Positions 2,276-19,823 of a stretch of DNA of 24,000 nt are shown piece after piece; within the stretch, counting starts at the first letter, position 1; every line of letters begins with the position of its first letter. The stretch spans positions 8,510-32,509 of the forward strand of contig NZ_JAGGLI010000033.1 in the NCBI RefSeq assembly GCF_017874355.1, given 5' to 3'. The translations under genes were made by a program, and so were the position numbers. This stretch comes from Acetoanaerobium pronyense (GTDB taxonomy: Bacteria; Bacillota; Clostridia; Peptostreptococcales; Filifactoraceae). The notes beneath the pieces are model-generated. The model was not told the origin of the DNA and made no database searches. It saw only the letters and a list, made by a program, of their open reading frames with translations.

Positions 2276-3280
2276 ATGAATAATAATTTCAAGGCAATGT
2301 TAGTATCCGAAACCGAGACAAAAGAATTTCATAGAGAAATTGTAACTAGAGAAATCAAAGATTTACCAGAAGGAGATATATTAATAAATGTGAAATATTC
2401 TTCACTAAACTACAAAGATGCCCTGTCTGCTACAGGAAGCCCAGGAGTCACAAGAAATTATCCCCATACACCGGGAATTGATGCTGCAGGAATTGTAGCA
2501 GAAAGTAATGATGATAATCTAAGAGCTGGAGATAAGGTACTCGTAACTGGGTATGATTTGGGAATGAATACATCTGGTGGCTATGGAGAATATATTAGGG
2601 TTCCTGCTAGCTGGGTTGTCAAACTTCCTGAAAATCTTTCTTTAAGAGAAAGTATGATATTTGGTACAGCTGGTTTTACTGCTGCACTCTCAGTTTATAA
2701 ACTAGTAAATTCAGGGGTTAAACCTCAAGATGGAGATATTTTAGTCACGGGTGCAACTGGCGGAGTGGGTAGCACAGCTGTTTCAATTTTAAATAAAATT
2801 GGATATAGCGTAATTGGGGCTACAGGAAAAACTAATGAAAAAGAAATGCTAATTGAAATTGGAGCAAAAGATATAATTGATAGAAAAGAGATAGATGATG
2901 CTTCTGGAAGAGCTCTTCTTAAAGGTAGATGGGCCGGTGTCATAGACACAGTAGGGGGAAATATCCTAGCAACAGCCATTAAATCAACTAATTATGGTGG
3001 CAGTGTAACGTGTTGCGGAAATGTTTCAGCTCATGAATTTTCAACTTCTGTTTATCCTTTTATTTTACGTGGAGTTACGCTCTTTGGAGTTGATTCTGTT
3101 CAGTGTCCTATGGACACTAGGCTTAAGATTTGGGATAAGCTTGCTTCAGATTGGAAGCCGGACAATTTAAATGATAATGTAGATGAGGTATCTTTAGAGG
3201 AGTTAATTAAAAAGATAGATATTATATTAGAGGGTAAAAACAAAGGCAGGACTATAGTGAATCTTGATTATAGTGAATAA
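2276..3280 (+). CDS. YhdH/YhfP (AcuI-like) NADPH-dependent quinone/acrylyl-CoA oxidoreductase, MDR superfamily
   Basis: 334 aa. 'FKAMLV...DLPEGDILINVKYSSLNYKDALSATG...PHTPGIDAAGIV' and the Rossmann motif 'VTGATGGVGSTAV' match the zinc-independent YhdH/AcuI subfamily. Strong SD AAGGGAGGA. Confidence 0.8.
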   Translation: MNNNFKAMLVSETETKEFHREIVTREIKDLPEGDILINVKYSSLNYKDALSATGSPGVTRNYPHTPGIDAAGIVAESNDDNLRAGDKVLVTGYDLGMNTSGGYGEYIRVPASWVVKLPENLSLRESMIFGTAGFTAALSVYKLVNSGVKPQDGDILVTGATGGVGSTAVSILNKIGYSVIGATGKTNEKEMLIEIGAKDIIDRKEIDDASGRALLKGRWAGVIDTVGGNILATAIKSTNYGGSVTCCGNVSAHEFSTSVYPFILRGVTLFGVDSVQCPMDTRLKIWDKLASDWKPDNLNDNVDEVSLEELIKKIDIILEGKNKGRTIVNLDYSE

Positions 3281-9234: not shown

Positions 9235-9666
9235 ATGAATCAGAATTATCTAGACAATCTTATTGAATATTTTAGGAGATACAACAAAAAATCCCCCTTT
9301 GAAAGCTTCTTCAACATTGAAGTCGATGAGCTAAAAGAGGGAAAAAGCGTATATAAGATAAATACAGATGAAAAACACACAAACAGATATGAATATGTAC
9401 ATGGCGGTACCTTGTCATCCCTATGTGACGTAGCAATGGGAGCTGCATGTATTACCCTTGGGAAAAAAATCGTGACTATTGATATGAGCGTAAGTTATTT
9501 AAAGCCTACACCAAAGGGAGCAGTATTGACTGTAATAGGTGAGGTAGTAAGTAGGGGAAGCACTATCATCCATACAGAGGGTAAGATTTTTGATGAAGAA
9601 GGTCAGCTTCTTGTAAAGTCCCATGGAGCCTACTATATAAAAGGGGATTTTGAAATAAAAGAGTAA
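9235..9666 (+). CDS. PaaI-family hotdog-fold thioesterase
   Basis: 143 aa. 'NRYEYVHGGTLSSLCDVAMGAA' is the PaaI/4HBT-II signature. SD GGAGG. Confidence 0.85.
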   Translation: MNQNYLDNLIEYFRRYNKKSPFESFFNIEVDELKEGKSVYKINTDEKHTNRYEYVHGGTLSSLCDVAMGAACITLGKKIVTIDMSVSYLKPTPKGAVLTVIGEVVSRGSTIIHTEGKIFDEEGQLLVKSHGAYYIKGDFEIKE

Positions 9667-9682
9667 TCATTATATGAAAATA

Positions 9683-9702
9683 GGGGATGCATATGCATCC
9701 CC
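9683..9702. terminator. perfect 20-bp palindrome GGGGATGCAT/ATGCATCCCC between convergent genes
   Basis: Seen directly. It is the only GC-rich hairpin in the 47-nt convergent gap, with A/T-rich flanks on both sides. Confidence 0.55.
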
Positions 9703-9713
9703 TTAGCTTTTCA

Positions 9714-9980
9714 CTAATCTTGGAGCTCTGATAGCTCTGGCAGGTCAAAGAAGATTTTTTCCCCATCATTTACAACAATGCAAGGAAGTCCTACCTGCCC
9801 CTTTGCCTTTATTTCTTCAAACTCTTTTCTATTGTCTCTATACTTTAAAAAACTTTTTAGGTTAAACATCCCCTCAGAAATATCAAGGTATGCATGCTTT
9901 ATATTGTTTTGTGAAAGAAACTCCTTCACTGGATCACAATCTGGTCAAAACTTGCTTCCAAATACAATAATCTTTTTCAT
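9714..9980 (-). CDS. glutaredoxin/NrdH-like thioredoxin-fold protein with in-frame TGA (candidate selenocysteine) in a U-P-D-C redox motif
   Basis: The track shows only a 71-aa GTG-start ORF (9714..9929). The same frame continues upstream: ATG 9980..9978, SD AAGGAG (9995..9990), then MKKIIVFGSKF-TGA(9947..9945)-PDCDPVKEFLSQNNIKHAYLDISEG...GLPCIVVNDGEKIFF. The TGA falls where the first Cys of CxxC follows beta-strand 1. With U this gives 88 aa. Confidence 0.6.
9911..9929 (-). promoter_or_regulatory. candidate bacterial SECIS hairpin
   Basis: mRNA GUGAAGG-AGUUU-CUUUCAC: a 7-bp stem (one G.U pair) with a 5-nt loop containing GU. It starts 15 nt after the UGA, so the loop G is 24 nt after the UGA. 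Confidence 0.4.
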
Positions 9981-10017
9981 TAACTACAGCTCCTTTAATA
10001 AAATTTCTCTATATACC

Positions 10018-10046
10018 ATTTTAGTATTTTTTATAGATAATTACAA
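10018..10046 (-). promoter_or_regulatory. sigma-A-type promoter for the Grx-like gene
   Basis: Read on the minus strand: TTGTAA (10046..10041), 17-nt spacer, TAAAAT (10023..10018), about 40 nt upstream of ATG 9980. Confidence 0.4.
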
Positions 10047-11258: not shown

Positions 11259-11879
11259 TTAGGATTCTCCTATTATAATCATGTGGTTTTTAGATGTTTT
11301 AGATAATTCAATATATAAATTCTTTGCTCTTCTCATATGAAGGGCTACTTCTTTCCATGATGCTTGTTTATCCATATAGTCAGAAATTTTAAAAACCCAA
11401 TCTTTATATGATTTGTACTTGAACTCAGTATTATCTGTGTAATTTGTCTTTTTTAGAGATTTTTCTTTTTTATGTAACTCCTTAAAAAGATTACAAAATA
11501 CATTAACTCTAACGTCAAGGTTTTCTTCCGATTTAAGAGTGATTCCAGGCTCTATAGCCTCTTCGATTAGCACCATATTATGGTAACCTGCTTCAAATGG
11601 ATTGCATATAGCTTTACTTTTAAAACTATTTAAGGCCGCAGCTTCACTACTGAATTCATCAGGATTTCTTCCAAATTTCAGTACAATTGGTCCAAATTTA
11701 TTTGATTTCCCTTTAAAGACTAAGTTTGCTGAAAAATGGTCTATTAAATTTAATTCTGCTATATCCCATCTTATAGTTAATGGCTGAATTAAGGCTTTAA
11801 CTCTATTAAAAAACTCATTTCCAAATTGTTTTATTATCTTTTCTTTTTCTAATTTATTGATATTATGTATCATAATCAT
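11259..11879 (-). pseudogene. APH(6)/StrB-like aminoglycoside/hydroxyurea-resistance kinase family, C-terminally truncated
   Basis: 206 aa. The N-lobe pattern (NLVFKGKSNKFGPIVLKFG...EAAALNSF...MVLIEEAIEPGITL) resembles PF04655-type kinases. The ORF stops (..SKNHMIIIGES*) where the catalytic HGDLHxxN loop should begin. Only about 80 nt remain before the next gene, and a shifted frame there reads HDYNRRILKN*. Confidence 0.5.
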
Positions 11880-11998: not shown

Positions 11999-12634
11999 TT
12001 ATCCATTATTTTTAACTGATGTGATGACATCTATAAATTTATCTACTGGCTGTGCACCATAAAGCGTTTCTTTTCCATCAAAGATAAAATAAGGAACACC
12101 GTCAATTCCTTTTGAACGTGCATCGCTCTCTGATTCTCTTACTTCCTGGGAATAATCCGAAGAAGTCAGAATTCGTTTTGCTTCCTCCTTGTCTAGGCCT
12201 ACTTCAGCTGCAAGATTTGAAAGTGTTTCCGAATCAGAAATATCAAGCCCTTCAGTAAAGTAACTTCTCATGACAGCTTCATTAAATTCACTCAGCTTAC
12301 TATTTTCCTTTGCATAATAGGATAATCGGTGGGCATCAAATGTATTTGTAGGTTTCAGGTCATCAAAGTTAAATATAAGCCCTGCCTCCATTGCACTTAG
12401 GATGAGTCTGTTGTTATTTTCTGTTGCACTTTCAACGCTCATACCATATTTGTTTGCTATCAACTCATGAATAGTTCCCTCATATTTTTTAGTTGCATCA
12501 GGATCCAATTCGAAAGATTTAAATATAATCTCAACTTCATCTGTCATACCTGATTGCTTAAGGGCTTGTTCGAGATTTCTTTTACCTATATAACAAAACG
12601 GGCATACATAATCTGACCATATTTCTATTTTCAA
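11999..12634 (-). CDS. DsbA/FrnE-family thiol:disulfide oxidoreductase (cytoplasmic type, no signal peptide)
   Basis: 'KIEIWSDYVCPFCYIGKRNLEQAL' carries the CPFC active site. The likely start is TTG at 12634, 6 nt after the SD AAGGAGAG (12648..12641). The track's ATG at 12670 has no SD. Confidence 0.8.
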   Translation of the reverse strand: MKIEIWSDYVCPFCYIGKRNLEQALKQSGMTDEVEIIFKSFELDPDATKKYEGTIHELIANKYGMSVESATENNNRLILSAMEAGLIFNFDDLKPTNTFDAHRLSYYAKENSKLSEFNEAVMRSYFTEGLDISDSETLSNLAAEVGLDKEEAKRILTSSDYSQEVRESESDARSKGIDGVPYFIFDGKETLYGAQPVDKFIDVITSVKNNG

Positions 12635-12736
12635 TACTATCTCTCCTTTATAAATATATCTTGGCATCATACTATAGTATAACTACCCAATATCTAAAGA
12701 AGTATTTACAAGTAGTATAGATATTGCATTAATATA

Positions 12737-13116: not shown

Positions 13117-14019
13117 ATGAAAAACTTGGTATTTAACATACAAAAATACTCAATTCATGATGGTTACGGCATAAGAACCACAGTATTTTTTAAAGGATGC
13201 CCGATGACTTGTAAATGGTGTCATAATCCAGAGAGTCAATCATACAGACCTTCAGTATTACAAAATACCGAAAAATGTACGAGTTGTAAAAAATGCACTG
13301 TTATTTGCCAAGAAGGTGCAATTACTTATGAAGATGGAAGAGTAAAAACATCTGAGGAAAAATGCAAGCTTTGCGAAAAATGCATAGATGGCTGTATAAA
13401 TAATGCTAGGGAAATCGTTGGGAAGTATTATAGCTTAGATGATATTATGAAAGAAATAGAAAAAGATAAACTTTTCTACGAACAATCAGGTGGTGGAATA
13501 ACTCTTTCTGGTGGGGAGATAATGACTCAGGATATGGATTATATAGTAAAAATATTAAAAAAATGCCATAGACTGGGATACAGAGTAAATATTGACACTT
13601 GCGGACATGCTAAGTTTGAAAACTTTGAAAAAATTCTGCCATATATAGATACATTTTTATATGACATAAAACATATGGATAGTGATATTCATAAAGAACT
13701 TACAGGAGTAGGGAATGAACTTGTACTTGGAAATTTAAGAAAGTTAAGCGAAAACTCTGCTAAGATAAACATAAGAATACCTCTTGTGGAAGGAATCAAC
13801 AGCTCAGAAGAACATATAGACAAGATCATAACATTTTTAAAAGAGTTAAAGATATACAAAATTAATCTTCTTTCATATCACAATACTGGAAAGAGTAAAT
13901 ACGATAGATTAAATATCGCTTATGAAGGTGATGATTATAAAGCGCCAAGTAATGAAAGAATGGAAGAAATAAAGCTTAAGTTTGAAAAAAATAATTTTTG
14001 TACTCAAATAGGAGGTTAG
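13117..14019 (+). CDS. glycyl-radical enzyme activating protein (radical SAM) for HypD
   Basis: 300 aa. Radical-SAM CxxxCxxC 'CPMTCKWC' (C28/C32/C35), two ferredoxin-like clusters (CTSCKKCTVIC, CKLCEKCIDGC) and 'GGGITLSGGE'. It starts 14 nt after the ppnP stop and ends 1 nt before the hypD ATG. Confidence 0.9.
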   Translation: MKNLVFNIQKYSIHDGYGIRTTVFFKGCPMTCKWCHNPESQSYRPSVLQNTEKCTSCKKCTVICQEGAITYEDGRVKTSEEKCKLCEKCIDGCINNAREIVGKYYSLDDIMKEIEKDKLFYEQSGGGITLSGGEIMTQDMDYIVKILKKCHRLGYRVNIDTCGHAKFENFEKILPYIDTFLYDIKHMDSDIHKELTGVGNELVLGNLRKLSENSAKINIRIPLVEGINSSEEHIDKIITFLKELKIYKINLLSYHNTGKSKYDRLNIAYEGDDYKAPSNERMEEIKLKFEKNNFCTQIGG

Positions 14020-14020
14020 C

Positions 14021-16393
14021 ATGGAACGAGGAATAAATGAAAGAATAAAAAAGCTCAGAAAGCAAAGCATGGAAGCAGTACCTCATATAGACATTGAAAG
14101 AGCAAGATTATTTACAGAGGCTTACAAAAAATATGAAGGCAGTGTATCTATTCCAGAGTTAAGAGCCCTATCATTTAAATATTATATGGAAAATAGAACC
14201 CTTTGTATAAATGAAGGAGAGCTTATTGTAGGGGAAAAAGGAGATTCTCCACAGGCTGCACCTACTTTTCCAGAACTTTGCTGTCATACCCTAGAAGATA
14301 TGGATGTAATGGATTCAAGAGAAATTATATTTTTCAAAGTTAAGGATGAAGATAAAAAAATTCAAGAGGATGAAATTATACCATTTTGGGAAAAACGTTC
14401 TATTCGTAATAAAATTATAAACAGTGTTACACCTCAATGGAGGCAATGCTATGAATCAGGAATATTTACCGAGTTTATGGAACAAAGAGGTCCTGGACAT
14501 ACTGTTGGAGGTGATGTATTTTATAAGAAAGGTTTTTTAACTTTAAAAGAAGAAGCACAAGCAGCTATTGATAAGCTGGACTTCTTTAATGATAGTGAAG
14601 CACTTACTAAAAAACATCAGCTTGAGGCTATGAAAATCGCATGTGATGCAATAATTATATATGCACAAAGATATAAGGAATATGCAATTGAATTGGCTGA
14701 AAAAGAACAGAATTCCCCAAGGAAAGAAGAGCTTATGACCATTGCTGAAAACTGTTCAGTTGTACCGGCAAATCCGCCTCAAAACTATTATCAAGCTATT
14801 CAAATGTATTGGTTTGTTCATATAGGAGTAACCACAGAGCTCAACCCTTGGGATGCGTTTAGTCCTGGAAGATTAGATCAGCATCTTTATCCTTTTTACA
14901 AAAATGACACTACAAATGGAGCTCTTGATGATGAAAAAGCCCTAGAATTACTAGAATGTCTATGGGTGAAATTTAATAATCAGCCAGCACCGCCAAAAGT
15001 AGGTATAACCCTTAAAGAAAGTTCGACATATACAGATTTTGCAAATATCAATACAGGTGGAATTGCTCCAGATGGAAGTGACGGCGTAAATGATGTAAGT
15101 TATCTAATACTTGATTGCATGGATGAAATGCAACTCCTTCAACCAAGTTCAAATGTACAGATAAGTAGAAAAACACCCAATGCATTTTTGAAAAGGGCTT
15201 GTGATATTTCGAGAAAAGGATGGGGACAACCTGCTTTTTATAATACAGAAGCAATAATTCAGGAGCTTTTAAATGCAGGAAAAACACTTGAAGATGCCAG
15301 AAAAGGTGGAACCAGTGGTTGTGTTGAAACTGGTGCTTATGGAAATGAAGCATATATTCTTACAGGGTATCTAAATCTTCCTAAAATTGTAGAGCTTACC
15401 CTTATGAATGGTTACGATAAGGTTTCAAATCAACAGCTTGGACCAAAAACTGGTGATCCTAGAGATTTCAAATCATATGAGGATTTCTTTGATGCCTATA
15501 AAACACAATTAGAATATTTTGTAGATATTAAAGTAAAAGGTAATAATATAATTGAAAAAATATATGCAGAATACATGCCAGTACCATTCCTTTCAGTAGT
15601 TACAAATGATTGTATAAGTAGAGGTAAAGATTATAATTCAGGCGGCGCAAGATATAATACAAACTATATTCAAGGAGTAGGTATTGGAACGATAACAGAC
15701 TCGTTATCAGCTATAAAATACAATGTATATGATAAGCAAAAATTTAGTATGGATGAACTTTTGAAAGCTATGGAAAACAATTTTCAAGGATATGAAGAAA
15801 TCCACAATATGGTGATTAACAAAACGCCAAAATATGGAAATGATGATGATTATGCAGATGAGATAATGCAGTCTGTATTCAAGCTTTATCATGACACCGT
15901 AACAGATAGGCCTAATATGAAGGGTGGTAAGTATAGAATAAATATGCTTCCAACCACATGCCACGTTTATTTTGGGGAGGTTATGATGGCAAGTCCAAAT
16001 GGAAGACTTGCCCATAAACCAGTTTCAGAGGGAATATCTCCAGAAAAAGGCGCAGATACAAAAGGGCCTACAGCCGTTATAAAATCTTGTTCGAAAATGG
16101 ATCATCTCTCTACTGGCGGAACCCTTCTTAATCAAAAATTTACTCCATCAGTGGTAAAGGGCGATAATGGACTTGAGCAGATGGCAAATCTTGTGAGAAC
16201 ATATTTTAATATGGATGGCCATCATATACAATTTAATGTAATTGATACTCAAACCCTTATAGATGCTCAAAATAATCCTGATGATTATAAAGACCTTATA
16301 GTTAGAGTAGCGGGATATAGCGATCACTTCCATAACTTAAGTAAAGAACTTCAAGATGAGATTATTGGAAGAACAGAACAAACTTTTAATTAA
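14021..16393 (+). CDS. hypD: trans-4-hydroxy-L-proline dehydratase (glycyl radical enzyme HypD)
   Basis: 790 aa. Glycyl-radical motif RVAGYS (Gly codon 16313..16315) and thiyl Cys in GGTSGCVETG (15320..15322). Blocks GPGHTV, NPWDAFSPGRLDQHL, KESSTYTDFANINTGG, MLPTTCHVYFG and PVSEGISPEKG..GPTAVIKSC match the C. difficile HypD sequence as I recall it, almost residue for residue. The SD GGAGG lies inside the activase 3' end. Confidence 0.9.
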   Translation: MERGINERIKKLRKQSMEAVPHIDIERARLFTEAYKKYEGSVSIPELRALSFKYYMENRTLCINEGELIVGEKGDSPQAAPTFPELCCHTLEDMDVMDSREIIFFKVKDEDKKIQEDEIIPFWEKRSIRNKIINSVTPQWRQCYESGIFTEFMEQRGPGHTVGGDVFYKKGFLTLKEEAQAAIDKLDFFNDSEALTKKHQLEAMKIACDAIIIYAQRYKEYAIELAEKEQNSPRKEELMTIAENCSVVPANPPQNYYQAIQMYWFVHIGVTTELNPWDAFSPGRLDQHLYPFYKNDTTNGALDDEKALELLECLWVKFNNQPAPPKVGITLKESSTYTDFANINTGGIAPDGSDGVNDVSYLILDCMDEMQLLQPSSNVQISRKTPNAFLKRACDISRKGWGQPAFYNTEAIIQELLNAGKTLEDARKGGTSGCVETGAYGNEAYILTGYLNLPKIVELTLMNGYDKVSNQQLGPKTGDPRDFKSYEDFFDAYKTQLEYFVDIKVKGNNIIEKIYAEYMPVPFLSVVTNDCISRGKDYNSGGARYNTNYIQGVGIGTITDSLSAIKYNVYDKQKFSMDELLKAMENNFQGYEEIHNMVINKTPKYGNDDDYADEIMQSVFKLYHDTVTDRPNMKGGKYRINMLPTTCHVYFGEVMMASPNGRLAHKPVSEGISPEKGADTKGPTAVIKSCSKMDHLSTGGTLLNQKFTPSVVKGDNGLEQMANLVRTYFNMDGHHIQFNVIDTQTLIDAQNNPDDYKDLIVRVAGYSDHFHNLSKELQDEIIGRTEQTFN

Positions 16394-16409
16394 ATTTTAA
16401 CAATAATTC

Positions 16410-16445
16410 AAAACCAAGGTAATCTATATTGCCTTGGTTTTCATG
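16410..16445 (+). terminator. hairpin + short U-tract between hypD and proC (weak terminator / attenuator)
   Basis: AAAACCAAGG (16410..16419) / CCTTGGTTTT (16432..16441) with a 12-nt loop. The proC SD follows immediately. Confidence 0.45.
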
Positions 16446-16462
16446 TGACAAAGGAGAGTATA

Positions 16463-17263
16463 ATGGATAAAAAAATAGGATTTATAGGTTGTGGAAATAT
16501 GGCAAAAGCTATGATTGAAGGAATAATAGCTTCAGAATTAGTAAGTGCAAAAAATATAATAGTAAGTGATGCCTACTTAAAAGGACTAGAAGATAGTCGT
16601 GAAAAATATGGATTTAATATAACTCAAGATAATAAAGAAGTAGCATCAAATAGTGATGTAATTTTTCTTGCAGTAAAGCCAAATATGTATGAATCAGTAA
16701 TAAAAGAAATATCAGAATCTACAAGAAATGATTCAATAATAGTTAGCATAGCACCTGGAAAAACTTTAGCAAAAATAGAAGAAGCTTTTGGTAAAAATAT
16801 AAAAGTTTTAAGAACTATGCCAAATACACCAGCACTTGTAGGAGCAGGGGTTACAGCTATATGCCCTAACAAGAATATAACTAAAGATGAGTTTGAAATG
16901 CTAAAATCTATTATAGGAACTTTCAGTTTAGTTGAAGAAATAGAAGAAAAGCTTTTTGATGCAGTAGTTTCTGTAAGTGGGTCATCCCCAGCATATGTAT
17001 TTATGTTTATAGAAGCAATGGCAGATGCTGCGGTTATGCAGGGAATGCCAAGAGATAAAGCTTATAGATTTGCAGCACAGTCTGTTATGGGAAGTGCTAA
17101 AATGATATTAGAAACTCAAAAACACCCGGGAGAACTAAAAGATATGGTATGCTCTCCAGGTGGAACAACTATAGAGGCCGTTGCTGTACTAGAGGAAAAA
17201 GGATTTAGAACCTCAGTAATCGAAGCTATGAGAGCATGTGGCGAGAAATCATCTAGAATGTAA
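16463..17263 (+). CDS. proC: pyrroline-5-carboxylate reductase
   Basis: The track's GTG at 16445 precedes the SD AAGGAGAG (16451..16458). The ATG at 16463 gives MDKKIGFIGCGNMAKAMIEG (Rossmann GxGxxA). The C-terminal 'VCSPGGTTIEA' is the ProC signature. Confidence 0.9.
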   Translation: MDKKIGFIGCGNMAKAMIEGIIASELVSAKNIIVSDAYLKGLEDSREKYGFNITQDNKEVASNSDVIFLAVKPNMYESVIKEISESTRNDSIIVSIAPGKTLAKIEEAFGKNIKVLRTMPNTPALVGAGVTAICPNKNITKDEFEMLKSIIGTFSLVEEIEEKLFDAVVSVSGSSPAYVFMFIEAMADAAVMQGMPRDKAYRFAAQSVMGSAKMILETQKHPGELKDMVCSPGGTTIEAVAVLEEKGFRTSVIEAMRACGEKSSRM

Positions 17264-18014: not shown

Positions 18015-19823
18015 CTACATCTTGGATTCCTTAATTATGTCAATAAACCCTTCGCCATAATTTTCATACTTCTTATCACCTACGCCCTTTATTTCTAAGA
18101 AGGACTCTTTATTCACTGGCAGATAGGCCGCCATTTCTTTTAACGCTATATCGTGAAATATAACATATGGAGGTAGCCCTTTTTCTTGGGCTATCTTGTA
18201 TCTATATTGCTTTAGCTTTTCAAATAGCTCTATATCAAAGTCTATATTTCCACCTTTTATAGATTTACTAGCTTTCTCTTTTTCATCTTTCTTTTGTAAT
18301 AAATGTTTTTTATGATGGAGCTTAGTTTTTCCGCTCAGTACATCTGCAGATTTGCTGGTTAATTTTAGCACTGGGTATTTATCATGAGTCATATGAATAT
18401 ATCCACTTGATACCAGTGTCATGATTATCTCGCTGATAGCACTATCACTGTACTCCTTCATTATTCCATAGGTGGATACATTATCTAATCTAGCCTCTAA
18501 TACTTTTTTATTCTTTGACCCCCTAAGTACCTGTATCACCATGTTGGCTCCATATCTTTGACTTACCCTATATATGCAAGAAAGTATTTTCTGAGCTTCT
18601 AAAGTAATATCCATCATTTCCGAGCTATCTATACAGTTACTGCAGTTTTTGCATTTATCATTTGCAAAGTCCTCATCAAAATAATTTAGTATTTGATTTC
18701 TAAGACAGTCATTTGTATTGCAGTAATTAACTAGGTACTGCAAATTTTTGTACAGTATCTCTTGCCTTTTAGGGTCTATATCGTTGTTTTGAATCATGAG
18801 CTTTTGCTTTACTATATCTGAAGCAGAATAAAGTAAAATACAATCGCTTTTTTCTCCATCACGGCCTGCTCTTCCTGCCTCTTGGTAATAGGCTTCCATA
18901 TTTTTCGGCATGTTGTAGTGGATTACAAATCTAACATCTGGCTTATCTATTCCCATACCAAAAGCATTGGTTGCAACTATAATCCTTTTATTCCCAAGTA
19001 TAAAATCATCTTGATTCTTTTGGCGTTCCTCTGAGTTCATTCCCCCATGATATCCCACTGCCGAAAATCCCTTGTCACTTAAAACCTTAACCAGTGACTC
19101 AACTGACTTTCGAGTCGAGCAGTAAACTATCCCAGACTCAGTTTTAAAATTTTCATTTAGATACTCAATTAAAAATTTGGATTTATTGCTAACTTTTAGC
19201 ACCTGATAATAGAGATTTGGTCTATCAAAACCAGTAGTGACCTCTATAGGATTTCTCAGCCCTATAAGGCGATTAATTTCCTTAATGATTTCTTTGGTTG
19301 CAGTCGCCGTAAATGCTGCTACTGCTGGTCTTTGCTTTAAGGAATTAATAAATCTAGGAATCTCAAGATAGCTAGGCCTAAAATCATGCCCCCACTGACT
19401 GATACAGTGAGCCTCATCTACTGCCACAAGAGATATCCTTATATCCTTAACCAGATTTATAAAAGAGTCAGTATTTAATCTTTCAGGCGCAACATAAACT
19501 ATCTTGTAGCTATTACCTCGTATACCCTCTAATATCTGCAAAAACTCATCGTTATCAAGAGTGCTATTTATAAATGCCGCATTTATCCCTAGTTCATTTA
19601 ATGAATCCACTTGATCCTTCATAAGAGATATAAGCGGAGATATAACTATAGTAATTCCATCAAGTGCTATAGCCGGAAGCTGATAGCAGATAGATTTTCC
19701 TCCACCAGTTGGCATAATTCCTAGAGCATCTCTTCCTTTTATTATACTTTCTATCAATTTGTCTTGACCATTTCTAAACTCGTCATAGCCAAAATAGGTT
19801 TTTAAAATATTTTGTAAGTCCAT
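18015..19823 (-). CDS. recQ: ATP-dependent DNA helicase RecQ
   Basis: 602 aa. 'FGYDEFRNGQ', Walker A 'MPTGGGKS', DEAH box 'VDEAHCISQWGHDFRP', the Zn-binding Cys cluster (C..C..CKNCSNC), and the RQC plus C-terminal HRDC domain (YVIFHDIALKEMA). Confidence 0.92.
   Translation of the reverse strand: MDLQNILKTYFGYDEFRNGQDKLIESIIKGRDALGIMPTGGGKSICYQLPAIALDGITIVISPLISLMKDQVDSLNELGINAAFINSTLDNDEFLQILEGIRGNSYKIVYVAPERLNTDSFINLVKDIRISLVAVDEAHCISQWGHDFRPSYLEIPRFINSLKQRPAVAAFTATATKEIIKEINRLIGLRNPIEVTTGFDRPNLYYQVLKVSNKSKFLIEYLNENFKTESGIVYCSTRKSVESLVKVLSDKGFSAVGYHGGMNSEERQKNQDDFILGNKRIIVATNAFGMGIDKPDVRFVIHYNMPKNMEAYYQEAGRAGRDGEKSDCILLYSASDIVKQKLMIQNNDIDPKRQEILYKNLQYLVNYCNTNDCLRNQILNYFDEDFANDKCKNCSNCIDSSEMMDITLEAQKILSCIYRVSQRYGANMVIQVLRGSKNKKVLEARLDNVSTYGIMKEYSDSAISEIIMTLVSSGYIHMTHDKYPVLKLTSKSADVLSGKTKLHHKKHLLQKKDEKEKASKSIKGGNIDFDIELFEKLKQYRYKIAQEKGLPPYVIFHDIALKEMAAYLPVNKESFLEIKGVGDKKYENYGEGFIDIIKESKM

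Follow-up and report, generated by a model that had tools for sequence, protein, structure and literature searches.

Selenocysteine (Sec, U)-containing glutaredoxins (PF00462, UxxC) are among the experimentally verified families of prokaryotic selenoproteins (PMC13188914 Table 1), and the catalogue family Glutaredoxin (Grx) is represented by WP_010943784.1 of Geobacter (PMC13188914). In 2006, Sec-glutaredoxins were predicted in Geobacter and Moorella as well as in Alkaliphilus metalliredigens, which has two copies (PMC1794560). In Clostridium (Alkaliphilus) oremlandii OhILAs, the native selenoprotein cGrx1 carries the motif U13-P-H-C16 and reduces the selenoprotein MsrA (PMC4479559; PMC7642778; PMC13188914 cites Kim et al., 2011, Mol Microbiol, for cGrx1). 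Here, we report on the minus strand from 9980 to 9714 of a 24,000-nt stretch of Acetoanaerobium pronyense DNA (the whole stretch is called the window hereafter), which very probably encodes a predicted glutaredoxin-like UxxC selenoprotein of 88 residues with the motif U12-P-D-C15 that is mis-annotated in the databases. The codon proposed to specify Sec is an in-frame TGA, which lies upstream of a hairpin of the bacterial selenocysteine insertion sequence (bSECIS) type.

The structure of the gene can be read directly from the window. It is a monocistronic gene with its own ATG, Shine-Dalgarno (SD) sequence, promoter-like site and terminator (Table 1). Translation of the minus strand from the ATG at 9980 gives MKKIIVFGSKF, the TGA, and then PDCDPVKEFLSQ...SELQD followed by two stops; after the TGA, the 88-residue frame continues as PDCDPVKEFLSQNNIKHAYLDISEGMFNLKSFLKYRDNRKEFEEIKAKGQVGLPCIVVNDGEKIFFDLPELSELQD until the TAG at 9716..9714, which is immediately followed by the second stop codon. 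The terminator is common to this gene and to the convergent 4HBT thioesterase gene on the plus strand (9235..9666). An earlier model-made reading of the sequence, referred to here as the first-pass annotation, had placed an SD AAGGAG, an ATG, a TGA and a TTGTAA-17-TAAAAT promoter in this region, and every one of these coordinates is correct in the sequence. It had also stated that the six-frame track offers only a 71-residue open reading frame (ORF) starting at GTG and that standard gene callers would truncate the gene. The mechanical ORF list for the region does hold only this ORF (9929..9714), and the RefSeq and GenBank products, WP_209661648.1 and MBP2028598.1, labelled "glutaredoxin-related / hypothetical protein," are 71 residues long.

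The TGA belongs to a Sec/Cys pair that is found throughout the relatives of the gene. One genome per species was scanned, which gave 328 related loci, and the best 79 of these were retrieved and compared; the top identity in this species-level scan was 78%, and the A. pronyense locus of the window was not itself among the matches. The related loci are mostly from Tissierellia, Peptostreptococcaceae, Alkaliphilus, Sedimentibacter, and other Clostridia. At the codon aligned to the TGA of the window, 68 of the 79 species loci have TGA and the other 11 have TGC or TGT, as would be expected if homologues carry either Sec or Cys at this site, and in the relatives an open, conserved reading frame extends to either side of the TGA, through the N-terminal MKKIIVFGSKx as well as the C-terminal part. 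The resolving Cys15 is invariant in the alignment. The proposal that the TGA replaces the N-terminal nucleophilic Cys of a CxxC motif as Sec is supported by this pairing and by the hairpin, which is co-conserved with the TGA.

The hairpin begins 15 nt after the TGA and has its loop G 24 nt after it, and the arms and loop are present as the first-pass annotation had described them (GUGAAGG/AGUUU/CUUUCAC). In the 65 unique Sec-type sequences that were used for the codon and hairpin counts, nucleotides 21-35 after the T of the TGA read GA(A/G)AG-AG(U/G)NU-CUUUC with almost no exceptions. The family core, GAAAG-AGUNU-CUUUC, corresponds to 9927..9913 of the window, is found at no other place in the window or in the 1.25 Mb of flanking DNA, and forms a 5-bp stem that is paired in 98-100% of the sequences in the consensus fold. 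Codon choice within the hairpin is equally restricted: Glu20 is encoded by GAG in 65/65 Sec forms compared with 39 GAA and 18 GAG in another Glu column of the same genes, Leu22 is encoded by CTT in 65/65 compared with six codons in each of two other invariant Leu columns (H ~2.1-2.2 bits), and codon 18 ends in G in 63/65 Sec-type sequences. The synonymous sites in the hairpin are frozen in the Sec forms only. Moreover, the hairpin is intact (5 bp and loop G) in 64 of the 65 Sec forms versus 2 of the 11 Cys forms (Fisher p = 3.8e-9), and it has decayed in the diverged Cys forms. Judged by these sequence comparisons, the constraint on the hairpin acts at the RNA level. A hairpin not conserved alongside the TGA had been named beforehand as an outcome that would speak against a selenoprotein; what we found is a hairpin that accompanies the TGA and disappears where the codon is one for Cys.

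The geometry of the element is in agreement with the published bSECIS model, which describes a loop of 3-9 nt, a stem of 4-16 bp, a distance of 16-37 nt from the UGA to the loop, a minimum free energy (MFE) of <= -7.5 kcal/mol, and a G at loop position 1 or 2, following the pattern N1-G-[G/U]-N-N2 (PMC13188914). The element of the window lies within all of these constraints, with the loop A-G-U-U-U, G at position 2, a 7-bp stem, a 22-nt spacing, and an MFE of -8.3 kcal/mol for the fold of the TGA and the following 39 nt. A search of the whole window with Rfam at gathering thresholds gave no match, and bacterial SECIS elements are without a usable Rfam model.

With Sec replaced by Cys, the protein matches the Pfam Glutaredoxin family PF00462 at 35.5 bits (cutoff 22.9). 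An AlphaFold2 model of P0001, a protein 95% identical to the window product with the same numbering and W at position 12, has a predicted local distance difference test (pLDDT) score of 81.5 and the topology β1(4-8)-α1(15-24)-β2(29-33)-α2(38-50)+α2'(53-59)-β3(67-70)-β4(75-77)-α3(83-87). This is the predicted thioredoxin fold of the glutaredoxin/NrdH type, in which residue 12 takes the N-cap position of α1, and Pro66 (9783..9785), ahead of β3, is invariant in the alignment. The best match of the model in a Foldseek search of the PDB was BC3987 of B. cereus (3ZIT; TM 0.69/0.80, root-mean-square deviation 2.2 A), followed by "Dithiol cGrx1" (7C10; TM 0.67/0.77) and then by methanoredoxin, an A. 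fulgidus Grx, and NrdH. Among these structural neighbours are proteins independent of glutathione (GSH), such as BC3987 and NrdH. A side feature of the active-site region is Cys67 (9780..9782), which adjoins Pro66 and is near-invariant (63/65 sequences, with Ala or Leu in the two exceptions); lying near U12 and C15, it may have a structural role in the protein interior, or else be a third redox residue or metal ligand.

We propose that the UGA at 9947..9945 would be recoded in translation, with the hairpin at 9929..9911 acting as a bacterial SECIS that would recruit SelB-GTP-Sec-tRNA(Sec), so that Sec would be inserted and translation would not terminate. The product would be a selenol/thiol-disulfide (selenenylsulfide) exchange protein in which Sec12 may attack a substrate disulfide or sulfenate and Cys15 may resolve the mixed bond, the oxidized U-C bond then being re-reduced by a cellular reductant. 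This reductant is presumably a thioredoxin-reductase-type or a low-molecular-weight thiol system, and by analogy with cGrx1 the substrates may be oxidized proteins such as MsrA.

Three other explanations of the TGA have to be weighed. According to the current GenBank and RefSeq entry, which coincides with the sole mechanical ORF, the gene starts at the GTG at 9929 and encodes a 71-residue protein lacking CxxC, and the upstream frame with the TGA would be meaningless or the dead N terminus of a pseudogene. Many database homologues are also 70-72 residues long; a 70-72-residue block beginning M/V-KEFLS was one of three forms among the 77 relatives found in a protein search. However, the GTG at 9929 is without an SD, and the codon aligned with it is GCG, GCT, or GTA, which are no start codons, in 34 of the 64 Sec-type loci that were used for the start-site counts. 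In 63 of these 64 loci there is an ATG eleven codons 5' of the TGA, 63/64 likewise have an SD-like motif at a distance of 4-16 nt before the aligned ATG, and the eleven upstream codons, the ATG, and the SD are kept across dozens of genera. The 71-residue product would also lose strand β1 and the whole redox motif of the P0001 model. Furthermore, decay would not maintain the stop as TGA in 65/65 unique Sec-type sequences, with TAA or TAG never found at the Sec site. The conserved ATG and SD, together with the non-start codons at the GTG position, therefore exclude the 71-residue model and the pseudogene reading for practical purposes, and we consider either to be very improbable; homologues starting downstream or showing scattered stops, which the first-pass annotation had set as a counter-indication, were not what the alignment contained.

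Another explanation is that the TGA is decoded as something other than Sec, either as Trp under an alternative code or by near-cognate read-through with Cys or Trp. Many metagenome gene calls have W at this codon, a second form among the 77 relatives being full-length proteins that show "W" there, and the Sec machinery of the host is a presumed one. Yet table 11 does not yield the W forms, whose DNA has TGA at the site, so that they are artefacts of gene calling under code 4. The 23 other genes of the window (33% G+C) end in TAA (16), TAG (5), or TGA (2), and all 59 Trp codons in the window are TGG; with TGA a true stop elsewhere and TGG used for all Trp, TGA is not a general sense codon here. 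Moreover, homologues have Cys at the site and never a TGG-encoded Trp, Cys being present in the third form from the protein search, a small set of full-length proteins that includes one from Tissierella praeacuta, and the Sec-type hairpin follows the TGA and is lost with Cys. Decoding as an amino acid other than Sec is in our opinion highly unlikely. The last explanation is that the TGA arose by an error in sequencing or assembly, or that this strain carries a nonsense mutation of TGT or TGC. A single base change from TGA would restore a CxxC glutaredoxin, and Cys forms do exist. Against it, the TGA is kept in two independent assemblies, L001 (Logan) and L002 (ENA), whose protein is 95% identical to that of the window, and the exact 88-residue product, with W for the TGA, is recorded on three further contigs, in addition to the TGA of the 68 species loci. 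The earlier concern that re-sequencing might show TGT or TGC is thus answered by independent sequences that also read TGA, and a sequencing error has hardly any probability left. Between the two assemblies and the window gene there are 11 differing positions (7 synonymous, 4 non-synonymous), none of which is within the 33 nt before the TGA, the TGA itself, or the hairpin, and only 1 base differs in the 70 nt upstream of the ATG. The changes all fall elsewhere, which indicates that the N-terminal segment is under constraint.

There are also observations that weigh against the gene being a functional selenoprotein gene in this host. With regard to RNA folding, which the first-pass annotation had suggested as a check, the hairpin does fold and fits the bSECIS geometry, but its stability is ordinary (-8.3 to -9.8 kcal/mol, z = -0.3 to -0.6 vs shuffles) and not thermodynamically exceptional, so that its significance rests on comparative conservation. 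There is little covariation, one compensatory double change from G-C to A-U being present in the core, because the core hardly varies, and the sixth pair is U-A in 27, C-G in 9, and unpaired in 27 of 63 sequences. The hairpin overlaps the conserved peptide KE(F/Y)LS, and part of its conservation is therefore at the protein level. On the side of the host, a tRNA-Sec search of the window and of 57 related loci found none, signature motifs of SelD, GrdA, and SelB did not turn up when 1.25 Mb of flanking DNA was scanned, the 24-kb window has none of selA, selB, selC, and selD, and the literature searched on A. pronyense makes no mention of selenium.

The sister species A. sticklandii has a complete Sec machinery and eight selenoproteins (PMC3091704), and by analogy with it, taken together with the intact TGA, SECIS, and N terminus of the gene, we infer that A. 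pronyense probably decodes Sec. The first-pass annotation had pointed to a HypD/ProC route to proline in the same window, and HypD, its activase, and ProC are indeed clustered on the plus strand (Table 1). HypD is a trans-4-hydroxy-L-proline dehydratase and ProC is a pyrroline-5-carboxylate reductase. Such a hydroxyproline-to-proline cluster is typical of Stickland fermenters and fits a lifestyle with proline reductase, a selenoprotein, although it is no proof of it. The predicted selenoprotein remains the best explanation of the locus.

Some observations concern the relatives rather than the gene of the window. The Cys forms L013 (Paratissierella segnis), L014 (a metagenome-assembled genome of Tissierella praeacuta), and L028, all three close to Sec forms, retain the 5-bp stem GCGAAAG...CTTTC, in L014 without the loop G, and from their sequences they look like recent Sec-to-Cys converts with a fossil hairpin. 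Tissierella praeacuta DSM 18095 (L018) has the TGA form, and the metagenome-assembled genome bearing the same species name has TGT. At six loci, the genome holds a Cys-type paralogue (MKKVIVYFSEHCKDCGPLKAALDEAGIKY...) in addition to the Sec-type gene, either immediately 3' of it or close by: in L070 the Sec copy has its TGA at nt 2485 and the Cys copy is the ORF 2850-3114, in L075 the Sec copy is at 638 and the Cys copy at 1007-1252, and in L030 the Cys copy is at 10001 and the Sec copy near 19766. The presence of both copies in one genome means that some organisms keep both versions, and it is possible that the Cys paralogue serves as a selenium-independent backup. In the gene calls P0001-P0051 from Logan and ENA (e.g., L001 156-422 and L003 1221-1487), the TGA is rendered as Trp, giving a spurious "GSKxWPDC." Translation under code 4 in this way systematically hides selenoproteins behind seemingly full-length W entries.

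Clustering of the gene neighbourhoods across the related loci revealed no redox partner that is conserved. What recurs near the gene are generic ABC transporters, a DHH-CBS pyrophosphatase (11 loci), and the tandem Cys paralogue (6 loci), and since the neighbourhood is not conserved, the physiological partner of the protein is a presumed one. In the window, a DsbA/FrnE-like oxidoreductase is encoded near the Sec-glutaredoxin gene; its ORF has 223 residues compared with 211 in the NCBI model (WP_209661652.1), the two differing in start site. RecQ on the same contig is WP_209661656.1.

Table 1. Positions of the features discussed, numbered along the forward strand of the window.
Feature	Positions	Strand	Remarks
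Full coding sequence, 88-residue glutaredoxin-like selenoprotein (predicted)	9714..9980	-	translation from ATG 9980; Sec codon 12, Cys15, Pro66
In-frame TGA, proposed Sec codon	9945..9947	-	residue 12, position 1 of the UPDC motif
TGT, resolving Cys15 of U-P-D-C	9936..9938	-	invariant Cys in 65/65 Sec forms and in the alignment
bSECIS-type hairpin	9911..9929	-	5' arm GUGAAGG 9929..9923, loop AGUUU 9922..9918, 3' arm CUUUCAC 9917..9911
Shine-Dalgarno AAGGAG	9990..9995	-	9 nt 5' of ATG 9980
Promoter-like site TTGTAA-17 nt-TAAAAT	10018..10046	-	consensus scan, 9/12 matches; consensus match only
Bidirectional intrinsic terminator AGGGGATGCATATGCATCCCCT	9682..9703	both	perfect palindrome, 9-bp stem, 6 GC pairs, T-runs on either strand
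71-residue GTG ORF, truncated product in RefSeq/GenBank	9714..9929	-	WP_209661648.1, MBP2028598.1; annotation artefact
206-residue ORF	11259..11879	-	no Pfam match at E <= 0.001
DsbA/FrnE-like oxidoreductase with CPFC	11999..12670	-	Pfam DSBA 1e-40; ~2 kb from the Sec-glutaredoxin gene
Glycyl-radical activase (300 residues), HypD (790 residues, WP_209661654.1), ProC (272 residues)	13117..17263	+	cluster

The significance of these findings lies in annotation and curation and in a predicted selenium-dependent redox protein in this organism; they reveal no new mechanism and leave the understanding of Sec decoding unchanged. WP_209661648.1 is without the active site, and most of the subfamily is stored as fragments of 70-72 residues or as code-4 "W" translations. 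In an NCBIfam scan of the protein, no family reached its curated cut-off, the best being GlrX_YruB with 34.6 against 88.55, and with no model above cut-off the Prokaryotic Genome Annotation Pipeline (PGAP) cannot repair the genes of the subfamily; a curated full-length seed containing U would mend hundreds of genomes. For physiology, the predicted selenoproteome of this organism, an alkaliphilic fermenter of the Stickland type that comes from a serpentinising vent, gains a redox selenoprotein, and a selenium requirement is thereby predicted. With regard to method, the family is a clean natural case of a SECIS that is detectable through frozen synonymous sites, and the fossil hairpins in apparently recent Sec-to-Cys converts are useful for benchmarking selenoprotein finders. 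A bolder view, which we find rather unlikely, is that these proteins are a separate, widespread, and systematically mis-annotated Tissierellia/Clostridia family, present in at least 328 species genomes and marked by a near-invariant mini-SECIS in the KE(F/Y)LS codons, a two-helix insert NLKxFLKYRD, and C67 directly after the presumed cis-Pro and next to U12/C15, an arrangement that could make up a Se/S/S site and hint at a function beyond classical GSH-dependent disulfide reduction. If this were true, the proteins might, for example, serve specifically to reduce Stickland or Msr selenoenzymes, or might bind metal(loid)s or Fe-S clusters.

Compared with the described systems, the predicted selenoprotein of A. 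pronyense is closest in kind to the Sec-glutaredoxins. It shares with the catalogue Sec-Grx family a PF00462 match above threshold, a UxxC motif with N-terminal Sec, and Cys homologues, but that family is broad and defined by its Pfam domain, whereas the subfamily of the window is centred on Tissierellia and Clostridia. Several families of small glutaredoxin- or thioredoxin-like proteins of anaerobes, some of them selenoproteins, are GlrX_YruB (TIGR02196), UXX-star, and SaoT. We rejected membership in YruB, NrdH, UXX-star, and SaoT: the scores are far below the cut-offs for NrdH (TIGR02194, 19.7 bits against 85.75) and UXX-star (NF041114 and NF041212, 22 against 72 and 18 against 66) as well as for YruB, and SaoT (NF040730) gave no match. 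In UXX-star, moreover, Sec is three residues from the C terminus, in contrast to residue 12 in the window protein. BC3987 (PDB 3ZIJ/3ZIT), the NrdH-redoxins, and methanoredoxin are likewise Grx-like folds of ~75-90 residues with an N-terminal CxxC, but they are Cys proteins and have 13-26% identity.

The resemblance to cGrx1 (PDB 7C10/7C12) is more specific. That protein has ~84 residues, comes from a host in the Clostridia, has a small Grx fold, and carries U-P-x-C at the same place (U13/C16 vs U12/C15), and phmmer matched the two proteins over residues 2-39 only (E = 1.7e-6), a segment that includes ...VKEFLSxNN..., the peptide overlapping the hairpin. Beyond residue ~39, however, there is no significant sequence match, the identity in the structural alignment is ~27%, and the subfamily of the window has a longer and strongly conserved two-helix middle (NLKxFLKYRDNxxEF) together with a presumed cis-Pro segment of the form G-[LI]-P-C. 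The MsrA partner and the GSH dependence are features of cGrx1. We examined whether the protein is an orthologue of cGrx1 and rejected this, the similarity being confined to residues 2-39 and not full-length. With ~27% identity overall and a different conserved middle region, the window protein is not a cGrx1 orthologue but a member of the known Sec-glutaredoxin kind that belongs to a distinct and poorly annotated subfamily.

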